DNA of 63,625 nt, the filler included, from Folioceros fuciformis (taxonomy: Eukaryota), in NCBI GenBank assembly GCA_049999805.1. It is 22 parts of 22 records of this genome, joined end to end, with 100 filler letters (N's around TTAATTAATTAA, not from the genome) between each part and the next. Parts side by side here need not be neighbours in the genome. Positions count along the whole stretch, not along the records: positions 56,055 to 61,526 come from JBNGIO010000776.1; 21 more parts are not named here. The stretch is one strand, 5' to 3'. The notes beneath the pieces were generated by a model. The model saw nothing but the letters and a program-made list of their open reading frames with translations, was not told where the DNA came from and did not search any database. This document shows, in pieces, positions 3,955 through 62,016 of this stretch. The position numbers and the translations under genes are program-made. Each line of letters opens with the position of its first letter. Position 1 is the first letter of the stretch.

Positions 3955-4054
3955 NNNNNNNNNNNNNNNNNNNNNNNNNNNNNNNNNNNNNNNNNNNNTT
4001 AATTAATTAANNNNNNNNNNNNNNNNNNNNNNNNNNNNNNNNNNNNNNNNNNNN
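3955..4054. other. Artificial contig spacer N44-TTAATTAATTAA-N44, first of 21. Others start at 7945, 11237, 15174, 16321, 19001, 20252, 21424, 23025, 24825, 28838, 30169, 32472, 35614, 38175, 40441, 41963, 47122, 49814, 55955, 61527
   Basis: Identical 100-nt N-flanked linker with stop codons in all six frames. Confidence 0.98.
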
Positions 4055-12153: not shown

Positions 12154-14578
12154 CTACCTCACCATCTTTTTCTTCTTATACACAACTTCCTCCAAACCAA
12201 CATATTGTTTCAGTCTGTTCGTGCCCTCATTCTCAGCAAAAGTTTCCAACACTTGTTTCCATTGAGGTTGTTCGTTTGCCTGTGCCACTAATTGTCTCAC
12301 CTTCTGTTGAGTTTGCTCCATTATGGAGGCTATCCCAAAAGCTAAATCTGAATGCTCAAATGCGGTATTCAGCACATGCCGTTTTAATAAAATCCAACCG
12401 TTTTTCTTTTGCCATCTCCAATTCTATCTTACATATTAGTGCCACCAAGAGGTTACTAGGCAACACAATGTGTGGAGCTTCTTGATCCTGCATCCAAAAA
12501 GCCATAGCCAAGTTGTTGGTATCACTACTTTCAGTAACACACGCTCCATTTGTTCTTCCATTTTGTCTAGTTGCTGCTGCACCATCCTTGTATATGCCAA
12601 GGAGTTGTTGAACTTTCACCACATGCTTGCAGATGAAACCTTTGTTCCCCATTGGACATGAGCATGTAGCCCAAGGAGAGTAAACATGTTCAATCACATA
12701 CCACAAGTTAGGGGTTGATGAAGACAAACAATGTGCAGCAACATTTTCAGCATGTGGTAAAATAATTGAGTTAATAGAAATAGTTTCTGCACCCTTTATA
12801 GCGGTTTCCTCCAAAGCCTCCAGCTTCTTGTTATGCCTGTATCGCCCTTCTTTCGTGAAGTGCTGGTACCAATAATGTTGGGCAACCACATTCACTAATT
12901 GGTGTAGTAACCAGTCTAGTCTACAGCCAGGCAAACTTGACTTGCTAAATGCTGCACGTTCTTTTATAAATCTTTGGAATCCTTCCACAGCTAAAGTTAT
13001 ATGTTGCCCTGCATGAGGCAACATTCTAGCATTACACAACCATATATCTATAGTCTCTCCCCATTGGACCTTCATATATCTCACAAAGTCTCCTTCACGA
13101 GTTCCCCACTTATCATAAAAATTGTGTTGCATACTTCTTCCTATGGAAACACACTGTGAAGATGTGCTTGCCCCTATGACATACATAATATCCCCTAGCT
13201 CTGCCCATATTGAAATTTGATTACTTTGTGAGTGCACTTTCTTCAATAAATTCCGTCTCCACGCTTTTCGCACATGCCACAAGCATAATAATATAGGCAT
13301 ATTATGATTCCAAACTAAGCGAATAGCAAAATCTATGCCTGACAATCATCAACAAGGAATGAACTAGGTGCCCAATCCTTGTTGATCTTTTCAACCTTCT
13401 TCCGTAAAGCTGAAAGCCACATAACAAGTGACTCAGTAGTAGCATCTTTTGTAAATAGTCCATGCTACTGGAACACCGTTCAAGTAATGGTCAAAACCCA
13501 TCACAGTGAATAAGTGGTAGCGATACCACTTATTCAACCCAAAAGTTGCATCCATAGCTAGCACATTACCATTCCCATAAAGCAACATGCAATTTAACAT
13601 AAAAGGAGTTTGAATACCCAAAGCGAAAGGTTGATTCTCGCTCGATTGATGGAAGACTATAGACGCATTTTGCTCCAACCACAGGGACACTGATGTGGCA
13701 TCATCCGGGGCTAGCTTCCATTCACCAACTTCAACTTGTGTAAGTATATTGAGAACATCATATCTTTGCATATAATAATCTTTTACTAGCTCATATACCT
13801 CTGTCTGATTGTTGATTCGAGCATACAATGCATCTTGATGCCGACACATTATTTCATCAATAGGAAATTTGCAATATAGGCAATGCCTGATCCAATCCTT
13901 CTTTTCCTGTGAAAGCCATGCTGCTCTGACATCACGGGGTAAGCCTTCATACCCAGGCCCATAACATATAGCATTTGAAAGGTCAATATGCCTATGTTCA
14001 AAAAGACTAATCTCAGCAACCGTAGGCCACACGAGAAGTTTCTTCACCCTAAAATTTGCTTGGCAACCATGCTTGACACTTTATCCACGGAGGACCTTAC
14101 ACTTAGCTGTATTAGCACCACATGACACTCCCACCTCCTTTTGACGAAAGTCTTCTGAGCCGTAAGAACACCAATACCTGCAAGTCAGCCTCACAATGTT
14201 AATGCCTCCTTAAGTAATAAAAAAATTTGCATACTTCAAACCTTCTTACCTAACATATAATACAGCTGTATGCATGGTCGATACTGCAGGGCAAGGTAAA
14301 CTCCACGGCCCCTTAGAATCCTTCTTGTAGAAGTTCGTAGGATGGGAACTTATAGCACTCATTCCCCCAATAAAGTCTCCCACTCTAGAAAAGAGTATGT
14401 GAGCCACCTTCACATGTTTTTGCTGCCCTGGTGCCCTAGAATGGTCATATTGAGAAGAAACCCAGTTTAGGTCAGTATGGTTAAATAACGCTAATTTAGG
14501 AAGCTGCACCACAAAAGGTGTGTTAGTTGGTAACTCTTCTAAATTAATACAAGAACTCAAATCCATATTATTATCCAT
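12154..14578 (-). mobile_element. MULE-type DDE transposase with SWIM zinc finger, frameshifted, one intron (~14179-14250)
   Basis: Motifs LAMDATFG, FLVDD, LLCLWH, AVEGF and SWIM CSCPMGNKGFICKH; a second copy lies at 30610-32408. Confidence 0.85.
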
Positions 14579-16484: not shown

Positions 16485-19000
16485 GTGAGACCCCCACGGA
16501 AACGGAGGGGTGTACGTCCGTAGGAGACACAGCTGATTTGGAGGGGGAGGAAGGGGAAGACAAATTCCCATTTTCTCACATCTCATGGACAGATGAAGTG
16601 GAGGACTACCGAAGGGATATTCCTTATTCCCTGAATTGGGTGGAGTGTTTTGGGCTCACCTTGGACTGCACCATGGTAGGGGCTAAAGCAGCAAACGTGG
16701 AAGGGCAGGCTGGTGAGGTTGCTGAAGGGAAGGGCCAGGAAAAAGCTCCACATGCCAAGGGGGTTGTGAAGGAAGGGGAGATGATGGAAGGGGGCTGTGA
16801 CCCAAGGCCTGATGGGCCTGGTAGTGATGACCCGGAGGTCACAAGGTTCACCTCCGAGGACCTATTGAGAGAATGGGGAATGAGGGAGGAAGATCCCCGG
16901 GAGCCGGAGGAGGGGTTTGGAGTCAGCTCAGCACCGGTGGAGCGTGAATGGGTGCAGGCTGATGAAATCAAGGATGTGGAGGTACTGCCGGGCAAGGTCC
17001 TGAAGTTTGCAAAACAGCTAGATGCCACATTGGAGGAGGGAATGAAGCAACTCTTGGCTGAGTTCATCGATGTGTTTGCCTTTGAGGTGACGGACATGAA
17101 GGGAATTCCCAAAGAATGGGGGGAGCACTAGATTGACTTGGAACTCGGAGCTGTCCTCGTCTGAATTCCACAATAAAAGTTGAATCCAAAGTACTCCATG
17201 AAGGTAAAGGAACAACTGGAGCAGTGCTTGAAGGCAGATGTGATTTTTCCCTTTGTGAATTCAGAGTGGGTGGCCCCAATCGTGGTGGTGCCCAAGAAAT
17301 AGCCTAGTAAGATTCGGGTGTGCCAAGACTGGAGGAGGCTGAACAAGGCCACCAAGAAGGATCATTTCCCTTTACCATTCATTGACAACATCCTGGATTT
17401 GGTAGCTGGCCGCATGATGTACTCCTTTTTGGATGGCTACTTCGGTTACAATCAGTTGTCCCTAAGGGAGAGTGACTGGCCATTGACAGCCTTCACAACT
17501 GATTGGGGAACATTTGCCTACAAGAGGAGTGCATTTGGGCTGACAGGAGCACCGGGGTCCTTTATGCGCAGCATGTACAAGATCTTCAAGGATTTCCTCC
17601 ACAAGTTCCTAGAGGTGTTCATAGATGACTTTTGCGTGTCTTGAGGAGTGGAGTAACATCTGGAGCGCCTAAGGCTATGCTTGGCCAGGTGCCGTGAGAC
17701 ACGGCTTTGTTTGCATCTGAAGAAGTGCTATTTTGGTGTCTGATTTTTTAGGCATGGGGGAATTTCCAGTTGATCTCACACGGCAGCAGCAGCTGCTATT
17801 CTTGTACTTCACAAGGCTGGTGGTTAAGTACAAGGGCAAGCTATATCGCACAGGAGCTGATGGCGTAGAGAGGTTGTGGGTCAAACCTGGCCAAGTGGAG
17901 CAAGTTATCAGCTCCCTACATGAGGGAGAGGCTGGAGGCCATTATGCAGCCCATGTGACCTGTAGAAAAATTCTGGCAGCAGGGTATTAGTGGCCAACAA
18001 TGCATGCTGATGCTGGAGAATTCATCAAGAGGTGTGATGCATGCCAAAGGATGGGGAAGCCTACTAGGACCATACAATGGCCATTGGTCCCCATCCTAGC
18101 CCTAGCACCATTTGAGAAGTGGGGGATTGATTTTGTAGGACCAATTCAGCCCAAGTCTAAGGGAAGGCAAAACCAATACATCCTGGTGGCAACTGACTAT
18201 TGCACACGCATGATGGAGGCCCAAGCTTTGCCCGTGGACATAGCAAATGTGGTGGCCCAATTTTTGTTTGAGCAAATCATCATAAGGTATGGGTGCCCGT
18301 TGGAGCTGGTGAGTGATAGGGGGACTCACTTCATCAATGAAGTAGTCAAGCACATGACTGAATATTTCAATATTAGTCATAGGAAGACCACTTCCTACAA
18401 CCCTAAGGCCAATGGACTCACGGAGAAGGCTAATGGGCTTTGTGCAAGATTCTCAGCAAGCTCACCGTCACCTATGCTCATGATTGGGATAGGAAGCTCC
18501 ATTCAGCCTTGTGGGTGTATAGGGCTGCTGAGAAGGTTACTACCCAGCAGACCCCTTATTACCTCACCTATGGACACTCACCGATCATGCCCATCAAATT
18601 TGAGGTACCTACCTTGAGAATGCAGGAGAGCAATCGATTGCCCGTGGAGGAGAGCCAGCTGGAGAGGCTAACCAGTTTTGTGCAGCATGATGAGGATAGG
18701 GAACGGGCCTTGGCTGTTTTCCTTGATGTTCAAGAGAGGAGGAAGAAGTGGTACGACCAGAAGTTGCGTAAACAAGAGTATGTTGTGCCTGGAGATTTAG
18801 CCTTGTTATATAACAGTAGGTACATGCACTTTCCAGGTAAGCTGCACTTGAGATGGATGGGACCTTACAGGGTGTTGGAAGTGTATGAGAATGGGTCCAT
18901 CCAACTGCAGCACCTCAACGGCCCTAACTTACCAACTAGGGATAATGGCTGAAGGGTGAAGAAATATTATCAGTAGTTGGCGAGGACGCCAACAAATGAG
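16485..19000 (+). mobile_element. Ty3/gypsy pol pseudogene (RT + integrase; RNase H region missing)
   Basis: RT motifs KKDHFPLPFID, SFLDGYFGYNQ, VFIDDF; integrase GGHY, CDACQ, FEKWGIDFVGP, LVSDRGTHF, GKLHLRWMGPY; in-frame stops and frameshifts. Confidence 0.92.
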
Positions 19001-23124: not shown

Positions 23125-24788
23125 AGTTCCAGGGGTGTGGTTGCTCTGTGAGCTGGTCCAGTAGGAAATGGCTGTTCCTTCTTCTTAGCCAGGGCACAGG
23201 TCTCACAAAGAGGGAGCTCTTTCAAACATGTTGGAATGGGCTCTCTGTAGTAGTCACTCTTACTAAGGGAGGACAGAACCTTGCGATTTAGATGACCAAG
23301 CCTAGCATGCCATAGAATAGACTGCTGCTTAGCCGAAAGGGTTCCTACACTTGTAGAGTTGACTTCTTGTTTGCTTCCTGGAAGACAGGTGAAGTCCAGA
23401 CGATACAGGTCATTCTCAGGCAGAGCCCTAAAGACACATATGGAAGGGGAGTCTATCCGAGAGAAACAGCAGTAATGCTCGTGAGCTGTTAGCTGGAAAA
23501 TCTTGAGCTGAAAAAGTTTGCTGAGAGACAGCAAATTCTTGGCCATGCTTGGAACATACAAGTCGTCTGGAAGAGCAAGCGTAGACCCATCACTTAGCCT
23601 AAATGTGCAGGACCCCTGTCCTAGAATTCGTAGGCTAGTGCTATTCCGTTCATCTCCCAAGTAGACTATGTCTACACTAGAGGAGGGGGTCAATGTCGTG
23701 AAGAGGGATTCCTCACGACATATATGGGCAGTAGCCCCAGAGCCAAATACCAGGCTGCCTTGTCACCTGTGAGAGTGGATAGGCAGATGGTTAGAATTTT
23801 AACCACCGGTTTGTTGGAATCTGCAGGTCTATCTTGAACAACAGAACTAGTAGAAGGACGAGGAGTCTTGCGAGGCTCCCCGGCCTTCTTCTTCCTGCAT
23901 TCATTGGCCCAATGACCAGGTTTGCCACACCAATTGCAGCTTCCAGGACGTTTTGTTGAAGGACCTGCGTGATTGCGTTGCCCTTTGTTTCTATTTCCTT
24001 GTTGTGAATTCTGTATCTTTGTTTTATCCTTATATGCTCCTCTGCCACGGAATGCAGTAAGCACTGTCAACTTTGGCTTTCCCAGTCCCTGACATGAGCC
24101 TGCTCTGCTCTTCCTGGAAAAGGGCACCTATAACCTCGTCTAAGGTAATAGTAATTTGTCTCCCAGCAGCATCGGCAGCTATAGCCTGTCGGATGGGGAC
24201 ATTGTGGGCAGATACAAAAGTCTGGTAACTTGGTGGCAGGCTGGTGAGCAACTGAGCAATCACGTCCACCTCATCCATCACTGTACCAAGGGAAGTAAGT
24301 TGTGCTCGAAGATGTCTAAGTTTGCTAGTGTGAGCAAGAACTTTGTCACCCTCTCGCATCTTAAGTCCATAGAATTCTGTGCGTAATGCACATAGTGTAA
24401 GGACATTACTGACTTTGTACTGGCTCTCTAACTGGGACCAAATTTCACTAGCCTTGGTTAGAAATTCTATAGGAGGAATGAGATCCTCTGTCAGGCCAGA
24501 AACAAGAAGGGCTATACCTATGCTGTTTGCATGAGCCCACTTATCCTTATCTGCTTGAATGGCAGTTGCAGGTGGCTCAGGAATAGAGCCATCTACAATA
24601 CCCCAGACTCCTCTAGCCAACAATGTCGACTTCATCCGCACTCTCCACACCTCGTACTTCTGACCATTAAACCTGTCTTTTTCTTTGAGTTCAGATGTGA
24701 AGACAGGGTTGTAAGGGCCAGGAGGACCAGGAAGTGAAAGAGAGGGCGGAGGTGGAGGAGGGGGAAGGGGAGGATTAATGTTAGACAT
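23125..24788 (-). mobile_element. Ty1/copia gag-protease-GAG-pre-integrase pseudogene
   Basis: gag FNGQKYEVWRVRMK, zinc knuckle CNWCGKPGHWANEC, LYVPSMAKNLLS, LWHARLGH...CETC; frameshifts. Confidence 0.92.
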
Positions 24789-28937: not shown

Positions 28938-29965
28938 TGGAGATGGGGAAGCAGCTGCACACCCAAATTCAAGAACAAGGGCTTTGAAGCTGATGTGAAC
29001 GTAGCCAACAGTTTGGTGAACATGTACTCAAAGTGTGGTAGCCTAGACGATGCGCAGCGGGTGTTTGGCAGATTAAATCGGAAAGATGTAGTGACGTGGA
29101 CAGCTCTCATTGCAGGATATTTACGGCAAGGAATGGGCGTCAAGGCTCTTAGCGTTTACCGTGCTATGCAAGAGGATGGGGTAGCTGTGCCTGATTGTGT
29201 CACATTAGTGTGCCTCCTGCAGGCGTGTGCATATGTGGCAGCTTTCCATTTGGGAAGGCAGCTACATATGCGGATCAAACAGCAAGGATTTGAAGCTGAT
29301 GTAATTGTCGCTGGCAGTTTGATTAACATGTATGCAAAGTGGGGAAGCATGGTTGAAGCACAGAAGGTGTTCGATTCATTGTCTGACAAAAACATCGTTG
29401 CCTGGAACGGACTGATTGCAGGATACAGCCACCAAGGAGATAGTGAAGAGAGTGAATGAGAGTGGACGGTATACTGCCAGACAGCATAACGTTCCTTGGT
29501 GTGCTGACAGTCTGTGCTCATACAGGTCAAGTGAGCAAGGGGTGGGAGTACTTCGAAAGCATGAGCAGCCACAGTGACATCGCCCCAACGGTGGAGCACT
29601 ACGCATGCATGGTAGGTCTCCTGGGCCGTGCAGGCCGACTGGACGAGGCACAAGGCCTGGTGAGGAGCATGCATGTACCACCTGATGCCACAGTTTGGCA
29701 CACTCTGTTGGGGGCCGCTCAAAAGTGGAGGAACGTGGAGGTTGGACGCCATGCTTTCAAGCAAGCAGTGAAGCTAGACAAGAAAGATGCAGCAGCCTAC
29801 GTGTTGATGTCCAACATGCCCTAAACACCAGAGCCGAAATTCGGAGCAACCACAGGCCTTGCAGAGGAAGAGGGTGAGAATTAAGGCATGAAGCAGACGG
29901 GACAAAGGTGGTGGACAGACATGGACGGCCAGTGGGCTGGTGCACAGTTTTTGTTGTTGGGGATA
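28938..29965 (+). pseudogene. PLS-class PPR pseudogene fragment with E1/E2 and a WW-type PG-box remnant
   Basis: L-S-P repeats (NSLVNMYSKCG, DVVTWTALI), VEHYACMVGLLGRAG, AAAYVLMSNM, then GQRWWTD and VHSF; frameshift near 29455 and stop near 29822. Confidence 0.85.
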
Positions 29966-30609: not shown

Positions 30610-32408
30610 TTCTCAATATGACCATTCTAGGGCACTAGGGCAGCAAAAACATGTGAAGGTGGCTCACATACTCTTTTGTAGAGTGGGAGACTTTATCGAG
30701 GGAATGAGTGCTATAAGTTCCCATCCTACGAACTTCCACAAGAAGGATTCTAAGGGGCCAGGGAGTTGATCTCGCCCTGCAGTACAAATAGTGCATACAG
30801 CTGCATCATATGTTAGGTAAGAAGGTTTGAAGTATGCAATTTTTTTTATTATCTAGGGAGGCATTAACATTGTGAGGCTGGCTTGCAGGTATTGGTGTTT
30901 TTACGGCCCGGAAGACTTTTACCAAAAGGAGGTGGGAGTGTCACGTGGTGCTAATACAGCTAAGTGTAAGGTCCTCCGTGGAGAGAGTGTCAAGCATGGT
31001 TGCCAAGAAAATTTTAGGGTGAAGAAACTTATCGTGTGGCCTACGGTTGCTAAGATTGGTCTTTTTGAACATAGGCATATTGACCTTTCAAATGCTATAT
31101 GTCATGGGCTTGGGTACACAGGCGTACTCCGTGATGTCAGAGCAGCATGGCTTTTATAGGAAAAGAAGGATTGGATCAGGCATTGCCTATATTGCAAAGT
31201 CCCTGTTGATAAAATAATGCGTCGGTATCAAGAAGCGTTGTATGCTCGAATCAACAATTAGACAGAGGTATATAAGCTAGTAAGAGATGATTATATGCAA
31301 AGATATGATGTTCTCAATATACTTACAAAAGTTGAAGTTGGTGAATGGAAGCAAGCCTCGGATGATGCCATATCAGTGTCCCTGTGGCTGGAGCAAAATG
31401 TGTCTATAGTCTTTCACCAATCAAGTGAGAATCAACCTTTCGCTTTGGCTATTCAAACTCCTTTTATGTTAAATTGCACGTTGCTTTATGGGAATGGTAA
31501 TATGCTAGCTATGGATGCAACTTTTGGGTTGAACATGTATCGCTACCACTTATTCATTGTGATGGGTTTTGACCATTACTTGAACGGTGTTCCAGTAGCA
31601 TGGGCTATTACAAAAGATGCTATTGATACTACTATTGAGTCATGTGTCAAGTGGCTTTCAGCTTTACGGAAGAAGGTTAAAAAGATCAACAAGGATTGGA
31701 CACCTAGTTCATTCCTTGTTGATGATTGTCAGGCAGAGATTTATGCTATTTGCTCATTGTGGAATCATAATATGCCAATATTATTATGCTTGTGGCATGT
31801 ATGGAAAGCGTGGAGACGGAATTTATTGAAGAAAGTGCACTCACAAAGTAATCCAATTTCAATATGGGCAAAGCTAGGAGATATTATGTATGTCACAAGG
31901 GCAACCACATCTTCATAGTGTGTTTCCATAGGAAGAAGTATGCTACAAAATTTTTATGATAAGTGAGGAACAAGTGAAGGAGACTTTGTGAGATATATGA
32001 AGGTCCAATGGGGATAGAGTATAGATATGTGGTTGTGTAATGCTAGAATGTTGTCTCATGCAGGGTAACATACAACTTCAGCTGTGGAAGGATTGCATAG
32101 ATTTATAAAAGAACCTGCAGCATTTAGCAAGTCAAGTTTGCCTGGCCGTAGACTAGATTGGTTGCTACACCAATTAGCGAATGTGGTTGCTCGACATTAT
32201 TGGTATCAGCACTTCATGAAAGAAGGGGGATACAGGCAAAACAAGAAGCTAGAGGCTTTGGAAGAAATCGCTATGAAGGGTGCAGAAACTATTCCTATTA
32301 GCTCAGTTATTTTACCGCATGCCGAAAAGGTTGCTACACATTGTTTGTCTTCATCGACCCCTAACTTGTAGTGTGTGATTGAACATGCTTACTCTCCTTG
32401 GGCTATAT
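30610..32408 (+). mobile_element. MULE/SWIM transposase pseudogene, copy 2 (intron 30817-30888)
   Basis: Closely similar to 12154-14578; GT..AG intron inside YVR/YWC; multiple premature stops. Confidence 0.85.
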
Positions 32409-55954: not shown

Positions 55955-56388
55955 NNNNNNNNNNNNNNNNNNNNNNNNNNNNNNNNNNNNNNNNNNNNTT
56001 AATTAATTAANNNNNNNNNNNNNNNNNNNNNNNNNNNNNNNNNNNNNNNNNNNNCAGGTATTATATGCCTGGAATGGGCAGCTTCGGTGCAGACGACACT
56101 CCAGTCCAGCCGGCGCCTTGCTGCCTATGATCTCGCTACACTACACTACACTACACTACACTATCTTCTTCTCTTACCATTTTATTTTAACAAGGTTTGC
56201 GTATGTCTGTACATGCCATATCCTGAGCACAGGCAATTAGAATTTCGCAGCACGGATGGCGTTGCCTATCATAGGACACTCCTCCAATCCAAACAGACCC
56301 AAAGAGAAGACCTCTTTTTTCCTTCTTTCCCTTTCGATTCTTATGTTACATTAAACTAAATAACCATGAACTCCTCCAAACTCAACAG

Positions 56389-59300
56389 CTATGGTCGACC
56401 CTTACAACTGCAACAGCCATTTTCAAAGCGATGCACTCGGTACCCATCCCTCACAACGATGTGTCTCTGTTCCACCCTCGACATGATCTCCGTGGAACTG
56501 TGGCAGTCGCTGCACATTCGTAGGTTTTTGGTCACCACCAGAGGTGTCCCACTGGCGGTGTTCAGCAGACCGAAGGCCAAAGCTAGTTTCTCAGCATGCC
56601 CGCAAAGCACATCTTCCTTCTCCTTCTCTGACACGGGCTTCAGAACCAACTTTGTGTCAGGTACGTGGCCTCCTTCCTGCTTTAGACGAGCGTTCGTGCT
56701 CTCTACCTTCACAGCAATGTCCTCCCTCCTTTCTCCCACCAGGAACCGATGTAGCTGCTTCTTCACCTCGATGGTCGTCACTGCAGGTGTCTTGCTGGCT
56801 CCCGCTACCCTTCTCCGTGTTTCGGTCCTCTCTACATCGCTCCACCGACCTGCATCTGCGTACGCATTAGCCATGAGCACGTAGGCGGCCGCCTCCTGAG
56901 GGTCCAGCCTAACAATGCTTTCGAAACACCACCGCGCCCTCTCCACATCCCCGTGACTTTTGCAGGCATTCAGCAGCGACGTCAAGCCCACAATGTTACT
57001 CTGCGCCTCACATGACAATAGCATCTTCTCGGCCTCGTCTAACAGGCCTGCTCGCCCAAGAAGATCAATCATGCAAATGAAATGCTCCACACCAGGTTGG
57101 ATGCCATGCTCTTGAGCCATGGAGTCCAAGTGCCTGCGACCCTCGTGCACCAGTCCACCATGACTGCATGCCACTAGAAGGCAAGTGAAAGTCACGTCAT
57201 TAGGCTGAATGCCAGCACCTAACATCTCCTCAAAACAGGCTAGTGCCTCGTGAGCTTCATCACAAGTACCGTACCCGGATATCAGAGCATTCCATGTCAC
57301 CACATCCTTTCCGCTCATGCTGTCGAACACGTGGCGTGCATCTTCCATCTCCCCACATTTTGCGTACATGTCCACCAGGCAGTTTCCCACCAAAACGTCA
57401 TCCACCAGTCCACTTTTCACAATCCGGGCGTGCAGCTGCCTACCCTGTTGTAACGCACCCGTGCTTCCACAGGCCTTGAGAAGGCAGGCATAAGTAACAT
57501 GGTTAGCCAACACGAGGCCCTCTTGCTCCATTCGTCCATGGAGAAGAAGCGCCTCATCCCCAAGCCCTGACTCGGTGTACCCAGATATCAGGGCGGTCCA
57601 TGTCACCACATCCCTTGTCTTCATGCTGTCAAAAACCTGGCGGGCATCATCCACTTCACCGCATTTTGCATACATGTCCACCAGGCAGGTCCCCAACACG
57701 ATGTCACTCACGAGTCCTCGTTCCACGATCTGTGAGTGTAGGTGCCTGCCCTTCAGTAAATCACCACTGCTGCCACAGGCTTTGAGAAGACAAGCAAACG
57801 TAACCTGGTCAGCCACAACAACGCCCACCTCCTCCATCACTCCATACACAAGAAGCGCCTCTGCGGCCTTGTTTACCTCTACATACCCAGATATGAGGGA
57901 ATTCCATGTCACCACATCCTTTGAGGCTAAACTGTCGAAAAGCTGGCGTGCATCTTGCACTTCACCACATTTGGAATACATATCCACCAGACAGTTGCCC
58001 ACCATCACGTCATCCAGCAGTCCTCTTTCCACTATCTGCAGGTGCAGCTGCCTGCCCTTATGTAAGGCACCGGTGCTTGCACAGGCCTTGAGAAGGCAGG
58101 CAAAAGTAACGCGGTCAGCCAAAATGAGGCCCGCCTCCTCCATCTGTCCATACACAAGAAGCGCTTCATGTCCAAGCCCTTGTTGTGCATACCCGGCCAT
58201 CAGCACCGTCCATGTCACCACATCCTTCGTTGACATGCTCTCAAAAACCTGGCGGGCATCTTTCACATGGCCACATTTCGCATACATGTCCACTAGGCAG
58301 TTACCAACGAACAAGTTGATAGGAATGCCACTGTGCAAGACATCACAGTGCACCTTTCTGCCGGATTGCAAGTCTTGTGCAAGTGCACAAGCCTGAAGGG
58401 CAGCTACGAAGACGTGAGCATCCGCCTTGGTTCCTGACCTACACATGTCATGGTACAGTCGTAGGGCCACATTGGGTTTCCCATGCTTGGCGTATGCGGA
58501 GATGATGGAAAACCACATGAACACGTTTGGTTTGGGCACCCTGGTGAACACGTCCATGGCCTCCTGCAGCCTACCGGCACATGCATACATGCGCAAGATA
58601 TGGTTACCCAAGTAGGCGTTGGACTGGTATCCGAGGTTGACGGCCAGGTCATGAACTCGTCGTCCTACAACCACATCCTTTTTAGCTGCACACAGTTTTA
58701 GCACAGTATAAAAAAGAGAATGAGAGACAGCAGAATCTGTGTGCGCCAGAAATTCGAGGGCATCGACGGCCTCAGACAGCTTCCCCCGCCGACACAGCAT
58801 GTTCACGGTTCCAGGCGTCACAACGCCCATTTCCGATCTTGCACCCTTCCTAGCCTCTTTCTTATGGGTGGAGGTGGACTTGGAAAGAGAGGCACCGTGA
58901 TCCATCTGCACATCCAAGGAACCTAGCTGGTGATAAACCCAAGCTGGCTTCAAGATATCGTTCAACCACAGGACCTCGCCGGAGCCTTTACGCCGGAAGT
59001 GAGGCACATGGGAACTCTTCTTGGCCCGTCTGTTGTCCCACCACATGGTAGGCTCCTGGAAAAATTGTTGCCACAAGTGCTGATGCTGCTGCTCCTCCTG
59101 GGGACGACCATCGCTGGAAACGCGGTCCCCAGCCACACAATCTTGCGGATGCGGAATCGCCGAGCTCCTTAGACTGCTGCCGCACCTGGAGGGCATTTCC
59201 GATTCTGCACGCACCCCGTATTCAGGACAGCTCCTGCCCTGACCCAGCTGCATATCCAAGGAAACGAGCTGGGCATCAACCCAAGCTGGCTTGGACATGC

Positions 59301-59679
59301 CGGTTAACCACAGGACCTCGCCGGACCCCTTGTGCCGGAAGTGAGGCGAACGGGAGCTCTTGTGATCTCGTCTGTTGTCCCACCACACGGTAGGGTCTAG
59401 GAAGAATTGTTGCCACAAGTACTCCTGCTCCTGGACAACAGCGTGGCTGCAAACCCCGTCTCCCCCTACACATTCTCTCGTAAGGCGCAGTCCTCGGCTC
59501 CTTCCGCTGCTGAACCCGGGGGATCGGTTGTTTGCCAGAGCTTGATTCCCTGAGGTGGTGATGTGAGCGGGAAGCCGTAGCAGAATCCCAGTCCCTGTGT
59601 TTGTAGACACGCGGATTGCGAGTGGTTGGCTCCATGGAGAGTCCGGGTCCGCCGGCAACGGCCACACTCCGGTGGCCAT
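56389..59679 (-). CDS. Intronless PLS-class PPR protein: 2x OSB-type PDF-like motif, ~17 PLS repeats, E1, E2, DYW:KP domain ending GRP (candidate organellar U-to-C RNA editing factor)
   Basis: 1096-aa ORF; L-S-P triplets; KTPAVTTIEV box in place of the PG box; HAEKLA; CSDCH; C-terminus SCKGRP; two W..FF..P..WWDNR..K..R/H.PHFR.KGSGEVLWL motifs. Confidence 0.95.
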   Translation of the reverse strand: MATGVWPLPADPDSPWSQPLAIRVSTNTGTGILLRLPAHITTSGNQALANNRSPGFSSGRSRGLRLTRECVGGDGVCSHAVVQEQEYLWQQFFLDPTVWWDNRRDHKSSRSPHFRHKGSGEVLWLTGMSKPAWVDAQLVSLDMQLGQGRSCPEYGVRAESEMPSRCGSSLRSSAIPHPQDCVAGDRVSSDGRPQEEQQHQHLWQQFFQEPTMWWDNRRAKKSSHVPHFRRKGSGEVLWLNDILKPAWVYHQLGSLDVQMDHGASLSKSTSTHKKEARKGARSEMGVVTPGTVNMLCRRGKLSEAVDALEFLAHTDSAVSHSLFYTVLKLCAAKKDVVVGRRVHDLAVNLGYQSNAYLGNHILRMYACAGRLQEAMDVFTRVPKPNVFMWFSIISAYAKHGKPNVALRLYHDMCRSGTKADAHVFVAALQACALAQDLQSGRKVHCDVLHSGIPINLFVGNCLVDMYAKCGHVKDARQVFESMSTKDVVTWTVLMAGYAQQGLGHEALLVYGQMEEAGLILADRVTFACLLKACASTGALHKGRQLHLQIVERGLLDDVMVGNCLVDMYSKCGEVQDARQLFDSLASKDVVTWNSLISGYVEVNKAAEALLVYGVMEEVGVVVADQVTFACLLKACGSSGDLLKGRHLHSQIVERGLVSDIVLGTCLVDMYAKCGEVDDARQVFDSMKTRDVVTWTALISGYTESGLGDEALLLHGRMEQEGLVLANHVTYACLLKACGSTGALQQGRQLHARIVKSGLVDDVLVGNCLVDMYAKCGEMEDARHVFDSMSGKDVVTWNALISGYGTCDEAHEALACFEEMLGAGIQPNDVTFTCLLVACSHGGLVHEGRRHLDSMAQEHGIQPGVEHFICMIDLLGRAGLLDEAEKMLLSCEAQSNIVGLTSLLNACKSHGDVERARWCFESIVRLDPQEAAAYVLMANAYADAGRWSDVERTETRRRVAGASKTPAVTTIEVKKQLHRFLVGERREDIAVKVESTNARLKQEGGHVPDTKLVLKPVSEKEKEDVLCGHAEKLALAFGLLNTASGTPLVVTKNLRMCSDCHSSTEIMSRVEQRHIVVRDGYRVHRFENGCCSCKGRP

Positions 59680-59939
59680 ACTTGTCCAGCGAACATATGT
59701 AGTTTAGCTAGTTGTTGTTGTTCAGGGAGCGGAGTCAAAGTCGTTCATGGACGGACGGTGTGTGATGGATACGTTGTAGTGGCAGGATGATGACCATGTG
59801 TCTATTTACTGTCATGTCACAACGCGGTCTGTGGCTCACTCGGAGTTATTAGTCCTGAAGGAACAACAACACCATCTTCTCCCTCCTCTAATCGTGTTCG
59901 TGTAGGGGAGGGGACTTTCATGGCTATCCACCACCAGGA

Positions 59940-61526
59940 CCCCCTTAAGCACCACTGCTGCCACAGGCTTTGAGAAGGCGCTTAAGCAAACGTAACCTTG
60001 TCAGCCAAAACAACGCCCACCTCCTCCATCACTCCATACACAAGAAGCGCCTCTGCGGCGTTATTTTCCTGCGCATACCCAGATATGAGGGAATTCCATG
60101 TCACCACGTCCTTCGAGGCTTCGAGGCCAACGTATCAAAAAGCTGGCGTGCATCTTGCAGTTCACCACATTTGACATACATGTCCACCAGGCACGTGCCC
60201 AGGATTACATCATCCAGCAGTCCTTTATCCACCATCTGCGAGTGCAATTGCATGCCCTTCTGTAAGGCACCAGTGCTTCCACAGGCCTTGAGAAGGCAAG
60301 CAAAAGTAACTCGATCAGCCAACATGAGGTCCGCCTCCTCCATTTGTGCATACACAAGAAGCGCCTCTTGGCCAAATCCTTGGCGTGCATACCCAGCAGT
60401 CAGGGCATTCCATGTGACCACATCCTTCGTGGCCATGCTGTCAAAAACCTGGCGTGCCTCTTTCACTTCACCACATTTAGCATACATGTCCACGAGGCAG
60501 TTGCCAACAAACAACTTAGTAGGAATACCACTGTGGAGCACATCGCAGTGCACTCTCCTGCCAGATTTCAAGTCAGCGGCGAGTGCACAGGCTTGAAGGG
60601 AAGCTACGAAGACGTGGGCATCCACCTTCACATCTCACCTACGCATCTCATGGTAAAGTTGTATGGCTTGGTGAGGTTTCCCGAGCTTAGCATGTGCAGA
60701 AATTATGGAAAACCACATGAAGACGTTTGGTTAGGCAACCCTGGTGAGCACTCCGGCAGCCTCCTGCAGCCTCCCTTCACATGCAAGCACGCGCAAGATA
60801 TGGTTCCCCAAGAATGAGCTGGAATCGTACTCAAGTTTGGCAATGAGACGATGAAGTCGACGGCCTACAACCAAATCCTTGTTAGCTGTACACAGTTTTA
60901 GCAGAGTGTACAAGAGAGTACGAAATGGCACACTCCTTCTGCGCAAGGCTCTCCAGCGCTCCAACGGCCTAAGAAAGCTTCCCCTGCGAACATAACTAAC
61001 GTCCTCACGGTGACAGCAGTAACGACGGTGAGTTGCGATAGCCCACGCCTGCCAGGTTTAGGCTTGTACGGAGAGCTGGACTGGAACGGAGAGGCAGCAT
61101 GGTCCAAGGAGACCAGCTGCTGCTCCTAAACCCGAGGTGGCTTACGCATGTTGTTCAGGCACAGCGGCTGGGCGGACCCGTTACGACGGAAGTCAGGCAC
61201 ACGGGAGCGCTTCTTCTCTGGTATGCTATCCCACCTCATGGTGGCCTCCAGAAGAAATGGTTGCCATATGTGTGCCTGCCCCACGCAACGCGCGTCGCTG
61301 GGAGACCCATGCCCATCCACAAACTTCGCGGGAATTGGAAGTATTGGGCTCCTTACGATGGCTTTGCTTGCCAGGGGTGGACTCCGACTCCCGAGGCTGA
61401 GGGTTCACGGGCTCCCGAACCCTTCACGGGCTTGCATTGAGGGCCTCGGGAATCCGGGCCTCCGGGGATTCAGGGGCTCGGCTGGTCTGGGGCCTTGGGA
61501 ACTTGCTCGTATGTTGAAGTGAGGAG
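59940..61526 (-). pseudogene. Tandem truncated, frameshifted paralog of the PDF-PLS-GRP gene
   Basis: Same PPR repeats (DAHVFVASLQACALA, DVVTWNAL, DRVTFACLLKACGSTG) and one degenerate PDF motif (RSRVPDFRRNGS); frameshifts; no E or DYW domain. Confidence 0.88.
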
Positions 61527-62016
61527 NNNNNNNNNNNNNNNNNNNNNNNNNNNNNNNNNNNNNNNNNNNNTTAATTAATTAANNNNNNNNNNNNNNNNNN
61601 NNNNNNNNNNNNNNNNNNNNNNNNNNTTTGCGGCGCTGTTAGACATAACACTAATAAACTCAATTGCCGGCCTGGCAGCTGCTGCGTTGCTGCCCCGCCT
61701 GAGTTATTCGCATATACCAGGGATAGCGTGAGGACTTCCGGATTAGATTTTAGTGCTTGACGTTGGGTGACATATCCAGCAATACTATCCATTGCCTCAT
61801 ATCCCGTACAGACGTATCTACCCACCTCCGAATCATGGTGAATGCTTTTGAATTAATTATTTGTATATTATCTCATTAAATATCTGGTAAATTAAAAACT
61901 CTCCCCAGCATTGCAATGTAATGCGGAATGCGCTAAGGCAACATATGCAAGTACATTATAACATTTGCAGGACACATGCCTTAGGGTTTAGGATTTTGAG
62001 TTTCTTCTCTTGCCAT

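Follow-up and report, generated by a model that had tools for sequence, protein, structure and literature searches.

The window analyzed here is a 63,625-nucleotide stretch of the Folioceros fuciformis genome (assembly GCA_049999805.1), consisting of 22 parts joined end to end, and the gene under study lies in the part derived from JBNGIO010000776.1 (positions 56,055 to 61,526), where two motifs of the type found in organellar single-stranded DNA-binding (OSB) proteins precede the pentatricopeptide repeat (PPR) array of a probable organellar editing factor. The gene (56389..59679, with all of its features on the minus strand) is a single unbroken, intronless open reading frame (ORF) of 1096 amino acids (aa) plus the stop codon, and an in-frame stop located 8 codons 5' of M1 makes M1 the first possible ATG start. 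As judged from the ORF list, the translation and Pfam, the product (P0001) is complete and consists of a presequence-like N-terminus, two PDF motifs, a PLS array of PPRs, an E motif, and a DYW-type deaminase ending in GRP. The N-terminus (aa 1-68; 59476..59679), rich in S, T, R and G and with few acidic residues, reads as a probable organelle targeting peptide, and low values of the predicted local distance difference test (pLDDT) mark the start of the structural model that includes both motifs. PDF motif 1 (aa 86-143; 59251..59424) and PDF motif 2 (aa 201-256; 58912..59079) are separated by a linker that is predicted to be flexible (aa 150-192; 59104..59232). The PLS-type array follows at about aa 291-908 (56956..58809), its start having been placed by reading of the sequence, and is matched by the Pfam families PPR, PPR_1, PPR_2, and PPR_3 in 5-11 stretches each (E 1.8e-82 for PPR and 3.6e-81 for PPR_2). 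The C-terminal region comprises the E motif (aa 909-971; 56767..56955; PF20431, 54 bits over profile positions 1-63 of 63, E 2e-14) and the DYW-family deaminase (aa 1004-1096; 56392..56670; PF14432 over aa 1004-1094, 116.7 bits, E 4.2e-34), which contains HAE...CSDCH and has TPA instead of the PG box.

With a PPR array followed by an E motif and then by a deaminase carrying HxE and CxxCH, P0001 has the composition of a PLS-class PPR-E-DYW editing factor. Its C-terminus reads ...CSCKGRP, with the GRP tripeptide replacing DYW, and the PG-box position reads SKTPAVTTIEV, that is, without PG and with K-T-P rather than a literal K-P; the corresponding segment of a relative, P0121, is KKPAVAGIEV. Hornwort proteins of the DYW:KP class, which is defined by Lys-Pro in place of the PG box (PMC11845758), come in DRH and GRP variants named by their last three residues (accessible part of PMC9478123). 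The GRP subgroup described in that part of PMC9478123, whose members are candidate U-to-C editing factors, resembles P0001 in its PLS array, E motif, deaminase with HAE...CxxCH, lack of a PG box, and terminal GRP; the first-pass annotation had labeled the protein GRP-type, and this label holds, with the proviso that the class name leads one to expect K-P where P0001 has K-T-P-A. The ORF thus probably encodes a nuclear PLS-class PPR-E-DYW editing factor of the hornwort GRP (DYW:KP) kind, with organelle targeting predicted from its N-terminus. Two GRP-based designer proteins, KP2 and KP3, are reported to perform U-to-C editing in Escherichia coli (accessible part of PMC9478123); for P0001 itself, such activity is predicted only by likeness to the GRP class.

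Two repeats of about 50 aa in front of the PPR array had been picked out in the first-pass annotation and interpreted as OSB-type PDF motifs. The repeats are present as quoted: LWQQFFLDPTVWWDNRRDHKSSRSPHFRHKGSGEVLWL...PAWVDAQL occupies aa 88-138, and LWQQFFQEPTMWWDNRRAKKSSHVPHFRRKGSGEVLWL...PAWVYHQL occupies aa 202-253. Together they span 58921..59418 of the window, in agreement with the position given at first pass. The hidden Markov model (HMM) that had been proposed as a check was built from 15 PDF motifs of six proteins in which an SSB domain passes the Pfam cut-off (P0004, P0010, P0021, P0029, P0038, and P0053), all built as OSB proteins are, with the motifs C-terminal to an OB fold, and PPR-linked motifs were excluded to avoid circularity. 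This OSB-only HMM matched both repeats over the whole model, with 68.9 bits for motif 1 (independent E-value, i-E, 1.5e-20; model positions 1-57) and 67.5 bits for motif 2 (i-E 4.2e-20; positions 2-56), compared with a maximum of 11.3 bits when the N-terminal 290 aa were shuffled 1000 times. A phmmer search with aa 81-259 against 1.84 billion representatives yielded 509 matches at E<=1e-3, including 123 at E<=1e-10. Here and below, the counts are lower bounds that refer to the best 150 of these 509 phmmer matches and to the best 120 of 377 matches to a profile of the PPR-linked motifs. Among the 150, Pfam identifies the SSB domain in 61 (2 of 10 plus 59 of 140) and PPRs in 11 (6 of 10 plus 5 of 140), and the profile of PPR-linked motifs also retrieves proteins named OSB1, OSB2, OSB3, and OSB4 by NCBI from many angiosperms. 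A word-index search, an insensitive mode superseded by the phmmer and profile searches, returned one match (P0002) with aa 80-260 of P0001 and only the query with aa 1-70 of the Selaginella protein P0149. At the level of sequence, homology of both repeats to OSB-type PDF motifs is secure, as originally proposed.

The consensus derived from 140 matches is LWxxxFxNPxxWWDNRxxKxNPxxPDFKHKxTGEALWLxxxxxPxWV, which agrees with the OSB pattern cited in the first-pass annotation. Both copies in P0001 carry P-H-F at the eponymous Pro-Asp-Phe signature, and motif 1 additionally has H in place of a near-invariant K; the other near-invariant profile positions (W3, W13, D15, R17, P26, F28, L37, W38, P44, and W46) are kept in both copies. 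The duplicated unit exceeds the motif itself: aa 60-150 and 171-264 are identical at 53 of 94 positions (BLASTP, E 8e-37), and we infer that the two copies arose via internal tandem duplication of a unit of about 90 aa. In this small sample, dN/dS between the copies is 0.42 for the motifs (63 codons) and 0.60 for the flanks (23 codons), and the flanks are more diverged than the motifs, with a proportion of nonsynonymous differences (pN) of 0.37 versus 0.18.

OSB proteins contain the same motif of about 55 aa (W..F.NP..WWDNR..K.NP..PDFKHK..GEALWL...P.WV) in one to three or more tandem copies, but these are located C-terminally to an OB fold, whereas the motifs of P0001 are located N-terminally to the PPR array in a protein that lacks an SSB/OB domain. 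The signature also differs, PDF in OSB proteins versus PHF in P0001, and the PPR-linked motifs group apart from the OSB-linked ones. No SSB/OB domain (PF00436) was detected by Pfam at E<=1 in P0001 or in its first 273 aa, Pfam has no model of the PDF motif, and these 273 aa match no credible family in it, the sole match being a sub-threshold one to TumE (E 0.08). Because it has no OB/SSB domain, P0001 is not an OSB protein. A run-on from an adjacent OSB gene was ruled out as the source of the N-terminus: an SSB domain is missing, the frame runs from the motifs into the PPRs without a stop codon, and a PPR pseudogene occupies the upstream DNA. Furthermore, a 1102-nt contig from an independent run (X1) is identical to window positions 58585..59686 and spans both motifs and the first PPRs without a joint, so that the uninterrupted form is also present in data obtained independently; the run type is unrecorded (RNA or otherwise), and the contig says nothing on transcription. 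X1 has no coverage of window positions 59688..59900, which is uninformative.

Several proteins with unusual sets of PDF motifs were also encountered. Compared with the one to three copies described for OSBs in the accessible literature, P0003 of Kingdonia uniflora (1160 aa) contains 13 tandem motifs and P0013 (JGI, 908 aa) contains 11. In P0041 of Coptis chinensis (1526 aa), three motifs precede a kinesin motor, and P0030 of Striga hermonthica (1063 aa), named 'Interactor of constitutive active ROPs 2', combines an SSB domain with PDF motifs; both of the latter could be merged gene models.

The AlphaFold2 model of motif 1 (aa 81-143, from an alignment of 53 rows) has a mean pLDDT of 90.1 and consists of a helix, three very short strands, and a second helix (elements H2-14, E19-21, E34-36, and H53-62). 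In the model of aa 69-300 (232 residues), the same mini-domain is found twice, each time with pLDDT above 90, whereas the linker of about 45 aa has a pLDDT of 45-54 and the predicted template modeling score (pTM) is 0.43; the motifs look like two independently folding beads on a string. Thus, in the structural comparison suggested at the outset, the motifs do fold with high predicted accuracy, but the search for relatives came back empty: Foldseek with the pLDDT-90 motif model found no match in the Protein Data Bank (PDB) at E<=0.001, and a sequence search of the PDB with the motif gave nothing below E 0.1, the best row aligning to a His-tag/TEV-site stretch. A wide VIA-align search with the motif model reached a best Z of 3.4, with no chain at Z>=5, which is not evidence for a new fold.

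The combination of PDF motifs with PPRs is not confined to P0001. The profile of PPR-linked motifs matches the 377 proteins mentioned above at E<=1e-3, and 47 of the best 120 contain PPR Pfam domains, 45 of these being "hypothetical proteins" of Diphasiastrum complanatum. Altogether, at least 56 proteins besides P0001 (about 57 in all) combine the two elements, from Diphasiastrum complanatum (45; for instance, P0139), Selaginella moellendorffii (P0149 and P0152), Ceratopteris richardii (P0109), Adiantum capillus-veneris (P0110 and P0043), Pteridium aquilinum (P0122, a EukProt ORF with a name resembling that of a transcript-assembly contig), Logan assemblies (P0002, P0121, and P0136), and others. 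No fusion with a named source comes from a seed plant, moss, or liverwort among the matches inspected. In the fusions checked for placement, one to three motifs are located N-terminally, with some tens of residues between them and the first PPR; the sole exception, P0168, carries an additional motif set midway along the protein and gives the impression of two gene models merged into one. The closest relative of P0001 among the matches inspected is P0121, which is 53% identical over the PPR-DYW part and also ends in GRP, with a single degenerate motif (48 bits; RDF, CWDIR).

The C-termini of these proteins vary. A DYW Pfam domain is missing from 38 of the 47 PPR-bearing profile matches; the remaining nine are all from Diphasiastrum, and all nine end in GDYW. 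The active-site pattern was matched in seven of the nine, with a PG box in six and RG in one, and among the approximately 57 PDF+PPR proteins seen, only P0001 and P0121 end in GRP. The annotated proteins of Diphasiastrum, Selaginella, Ceratopteris, and Adiantum (labeled "hypothetical" or "PPR-containing") share with P0001 the N-terminal motifs, the short linker, and the PLS array, but have the canonical PDF signature and E-only or DYW:PG (GDYW) C-termini, as opposed to PHF and GRP. Judging by these sequences, the PDF-PPR proteins are an old subfamily with one to three N-terminal PDF motifs and a PLS array, present in hornwort-type, lycophyte, and fern sequences and comprising E-only, DYW:PG, and GRP members. 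In Selaginella, P0149/P0152 has, on a PPR protein, a canonical PDF motif (84 bits) at the extreme N-terminus; only 5 residues precede it in the gene model, which may be 5'-truncated.

A maximum-likelihood tree based on 56 columns was built for 91 motif instances, of which 25 PPR fusions contributed 46 and 18 OSB-type proteins contributed 45; many of its forks are unresolved. PPR and OSB labels change only three times on this tree, compared with a mean of 30.7 changes in shuffles (none of 500 as low). The two P0001 motifs are sisters and, together with those of P0121, P0002, and fern fusions, fall into an all-PPR set of 10 (SH-aLRT 96), whereas the lycophyte PDF-PPR motifs occupy a different sub-clade. 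The motifs of the SSB-positive Adiantum OSB P0185 group with OSB motifs and not with those of the Adiantum PDF-PPR proteins. Constraining all PPR-linked motifs to one clade gave a log-likelihood (lnL) change of +2.2 and a p-value of 0.54 in the approximately unbiased (AU) test, so that a single old fusion is not rejected, 56 columns being too few to prove it.

Immediately upstream of the gene, at 59985..61389 (minus strand; tblastn of P0001 on the window and ORF fragments), lies a tandem paralog that matches aa 51-629 of P0001 in frames -2, -1, and -3 and then ends, without E and DYW regions. It is a pseudogene, with one degenerate PDF motif (61120..61272, minus strand; OSB-only HMM 16.7 bits, i-E 2.9e-4) and PPRs scattered over three frames. 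The claim made at first pass that this paralog keeps the literal PDF is correct as far as the residues go, the string VPDFRRNGS lying in frame at 61126..61404 (minus strand), but the copy is frame-shifted and truncated and its motif is weak, with WWDNR lost. The single motif unit suggests that the internal duplication in P0001 postdates the gene duplication, or else that the pseudogene lost a unit; because the pseudogene keeps the D, the change from D to H probably occurred on the P0001 lineage before the internal duplication.

Elsewhere in the window, a PPR/E-like fragment in two frames (28947..29815, plus strand) matches P0001 from about aa 650 to 938 at 42-45% identity and is probably another PPR pseudogene. 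By eye, four ORFs resemble transposon proteins: two are transposase-like and related to each other, one looks like the integrase core of a retroelement, and one is gag-like (12356..13300, minus; 18000..18617, plus; 24030..24788, minus; 31295..31918, plus), and this richness of the remaining window in transposon-like ORFs fits a plant nuclear region. The window also contains 21 paired runs of 44 N with 12 bases within each pair (1848 N in total; for example, 3955..4054, 55955..56054, and 61527..61626), one pair being located just upstream of the pseudogene; these look like masking or joins rather than biology.

Both parts of the P0001 architecture are known; what seems not to have been described is their combination, along with how large and how old the PDF-PPR subfamily is. 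No description of a PDF motif fused to PPRs was found in the literature searched, with supplements and some key papers outside the search, which agrees with the initial impression that the architecture had not been characterized. RRM-PPR and other editing-factor fusions were catalogued kingdom-wide in a 2026 survey (PMC13386178), the main text of which contains no occurrence of OSB or PDF, and in a review covering both the PDF motif and pentatricopeptide proteins, PPR is mentioned only in connection with RNA polymerases. The accessible part of PMC9478123 does not mention an N-terminal PDF module in the hornwort GRP subgroup, and the designer proteins begin with PLS triplets behind a tag. Conceptually, the closest counterparts are the MORF/RIP/DAL, ORRM, and OZ helpers of seed plants, which likewise add an accessory module to a PPR site-recognition factor; these, however, act in trans and belong to unrelated folds and families, whereas the PDF module is fused in cis. 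The DAL/MORF genes are reported to be specific to seed plants (accessible part of PMC5515838).

What might the module do? The PDF motif has been reported to be responsible for ssDNA binding by OSB proteins, and sufficient for it in OSB1 (accessible parts of PMC4166229 and PMC6963530). On balance, the PDF beads most likely serve as a cis-acting accessory that would bind single-stranded nucleic acid, a role general to the PDF-PPR subfamily. Under this model, the beads would provide a sequence-unspecific grip 5' of the PPR footprint, site recognition would fall to the PPR array, and catalysis would fall to the DYW domain. When a PPR tract binds RNA, its N-terminal repeats face the 5' side of the target, so that flexible beads at the N-terminus would be positioned to contact nucleic acid 5' of the footprint. 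The beads could raise the affinity or the on-rate for an unfolded transcript, or keep the site unfolded; alternatively, they could hold the factor at nucleoid ssDNA or near nascent RNA.

Several observations weigh against this interpretation. Nucleic acid binding by the PPR-linked motifs is carried over, by analogy, from the OSB motifs, and RNA binding in particular would be an extrapolation because OSB1 and OSB2 prefer ssDNA over dsDNA or RNA (accessible part of PMC4166229). No structural relative that would hint at a binding mode was found by sequence or fold. The D of the PDF signature is present in 321 of 336 motif instances and replaced by H in only three, two of which are the P0001 copies, and the column in which motif 1 has H contains K in 329 of the 336; either change, D to H or K to H, could weaken or alter the function of the motif. 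Finally, the dN/dS of 0.42 between the copies amounts to modest constraint, a weak signal.

A different role, possible though doubtful, is that of protein-protein contact or oligomerization modules without nucleic acid binding, which might recruit a DYW donor in trans or a nucleoid protein, or mediate pairing between PPR proteins. Such a role would suit the 38 PPR-bearing matches without DYW, which would need a deaminase in trans, and the small helix/short-strand/helix fold, which has no recognizable nucleic acid-binding relative; the motifs in the kinesin gene model P0041 point the same way. It sits poorly with the conserved residues, mostly aromatic and basic (W, F, R, and K) as is typical of single-strand binders, and with the lack of a known interaction partner, and reported experiments ascribe no property other than ssDNA binding to PDF motifs (accessible parts of PMC6963530 and PMC4166229).

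That the motifs of P0001 are decaying, nonfunctional relics of an ancestral module is unlikely. The substitutions described above, PDF to PHF in both copies and K to H in motif 1, could be signs of decay, as could the weaker single motif (RDF, CWDIR) of P0121, the pseudogenization of the neighboring paralog, and the dN/dS of merely 0.42. Yet both copies score 67-69 bits over the full profile with at least 10 near-invariant positions kept, are modeled with pLDDT above 90, and are less diverged than their flanks, in a frame that is intact over 1096 codons.

The first-pass annotation had also suggested a link of the module to U-to-C editing, in the sense of an adaptation that tethers such editors or recruits a partner for the amination, and here the comparative data lead elsewhere. 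Neither P0001 nor P0121, its closest relative, has a PG box, both have GRP as their C-terminal tripeptide, and GRP-type designer proteins do edit U to C (accessible part of PMC9478123). However, GRP proteins account for only 2 of the approximately 57 PDF-PPRs, the nine Diphasiastrum members with DYW all end in GDYW, mostly with a PG box, most members are E-only, and P0121 retains only one degenerate motif. The fusion is also present in Selaginella, in which, to our knowledge, editing is exclusively C-to-U. Because GRP members are few, the DYW members are GDYW, most proteins lack DYW, and Selaginella carries the fusion, the PDF module appears to be a trait of the PLS subfamily at large rather than of U-to-C editors, and a specific link to reverse editing is very improbable. 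Least probable of all is that the motifs lie outside the working protein through a downstream Met start (later Met codons are present, for example, at aa 259, 284, and 294) or removal with the transit peptide, considering that no ATG lies between M1 and the in-frame stop that precedes it, that 256 aa far exceed the much shorter typical transit peptides, and that dozens of genes from several lineages, including the Pteridium ORF, the name of which suggests a transcript, likewise carry the motifs at the N-terminus.

Returning to the favored role of the beads as a single-strand-binding accessory, a broader evolutionary scenario can be tentatively outlined, although we consider it speculative in its entirety. 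PDF-PPR proteins might be ancient, self-sufficient editing factors of single origin, predating the split between hornworts and vascular plants, in which the beads would take on in cis the task that MORF/ORRM-type helpers of seed plants perform in trans, gripping unfolded RNA of the organelle, or ssDNA of the nucleoid at the transcription bubble, so that editing would proceed co-transcriptionally. The module would have been lost once trans helpers took over, and PHF in the GRP lineage would reflect retuning from DNA to RNA.

In the usual description, a PPR editing factor comprises a transit peptide, a PLS array, and E/DYW domains at the C-terminus, and the MORF, ORRM, and OZ helpers are known mainly from seed plants. 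Editing is heaviest in hornworts, lycophytes, and ferns, and in some of these lineages it also runs in the reverse direction. The PDF motifs evidently occur outside OSB proteins: OSB is listed as not detected in Selaginella in the gene table of PMC4166229 (accessible part), and yet a PDF motif survives there on a PPR protein. A conserved N-terminal module, derived from organellar ssDNA-binding proteins and present on dozens of PLS proteins, would represent an unrecognized part of the editing machinery, and may offer a handle on how editing factors find or hold their substrates, on the coupling of editing to nucleoids or transcription, and, possibly, on the improvement of synthetic PPR editors.

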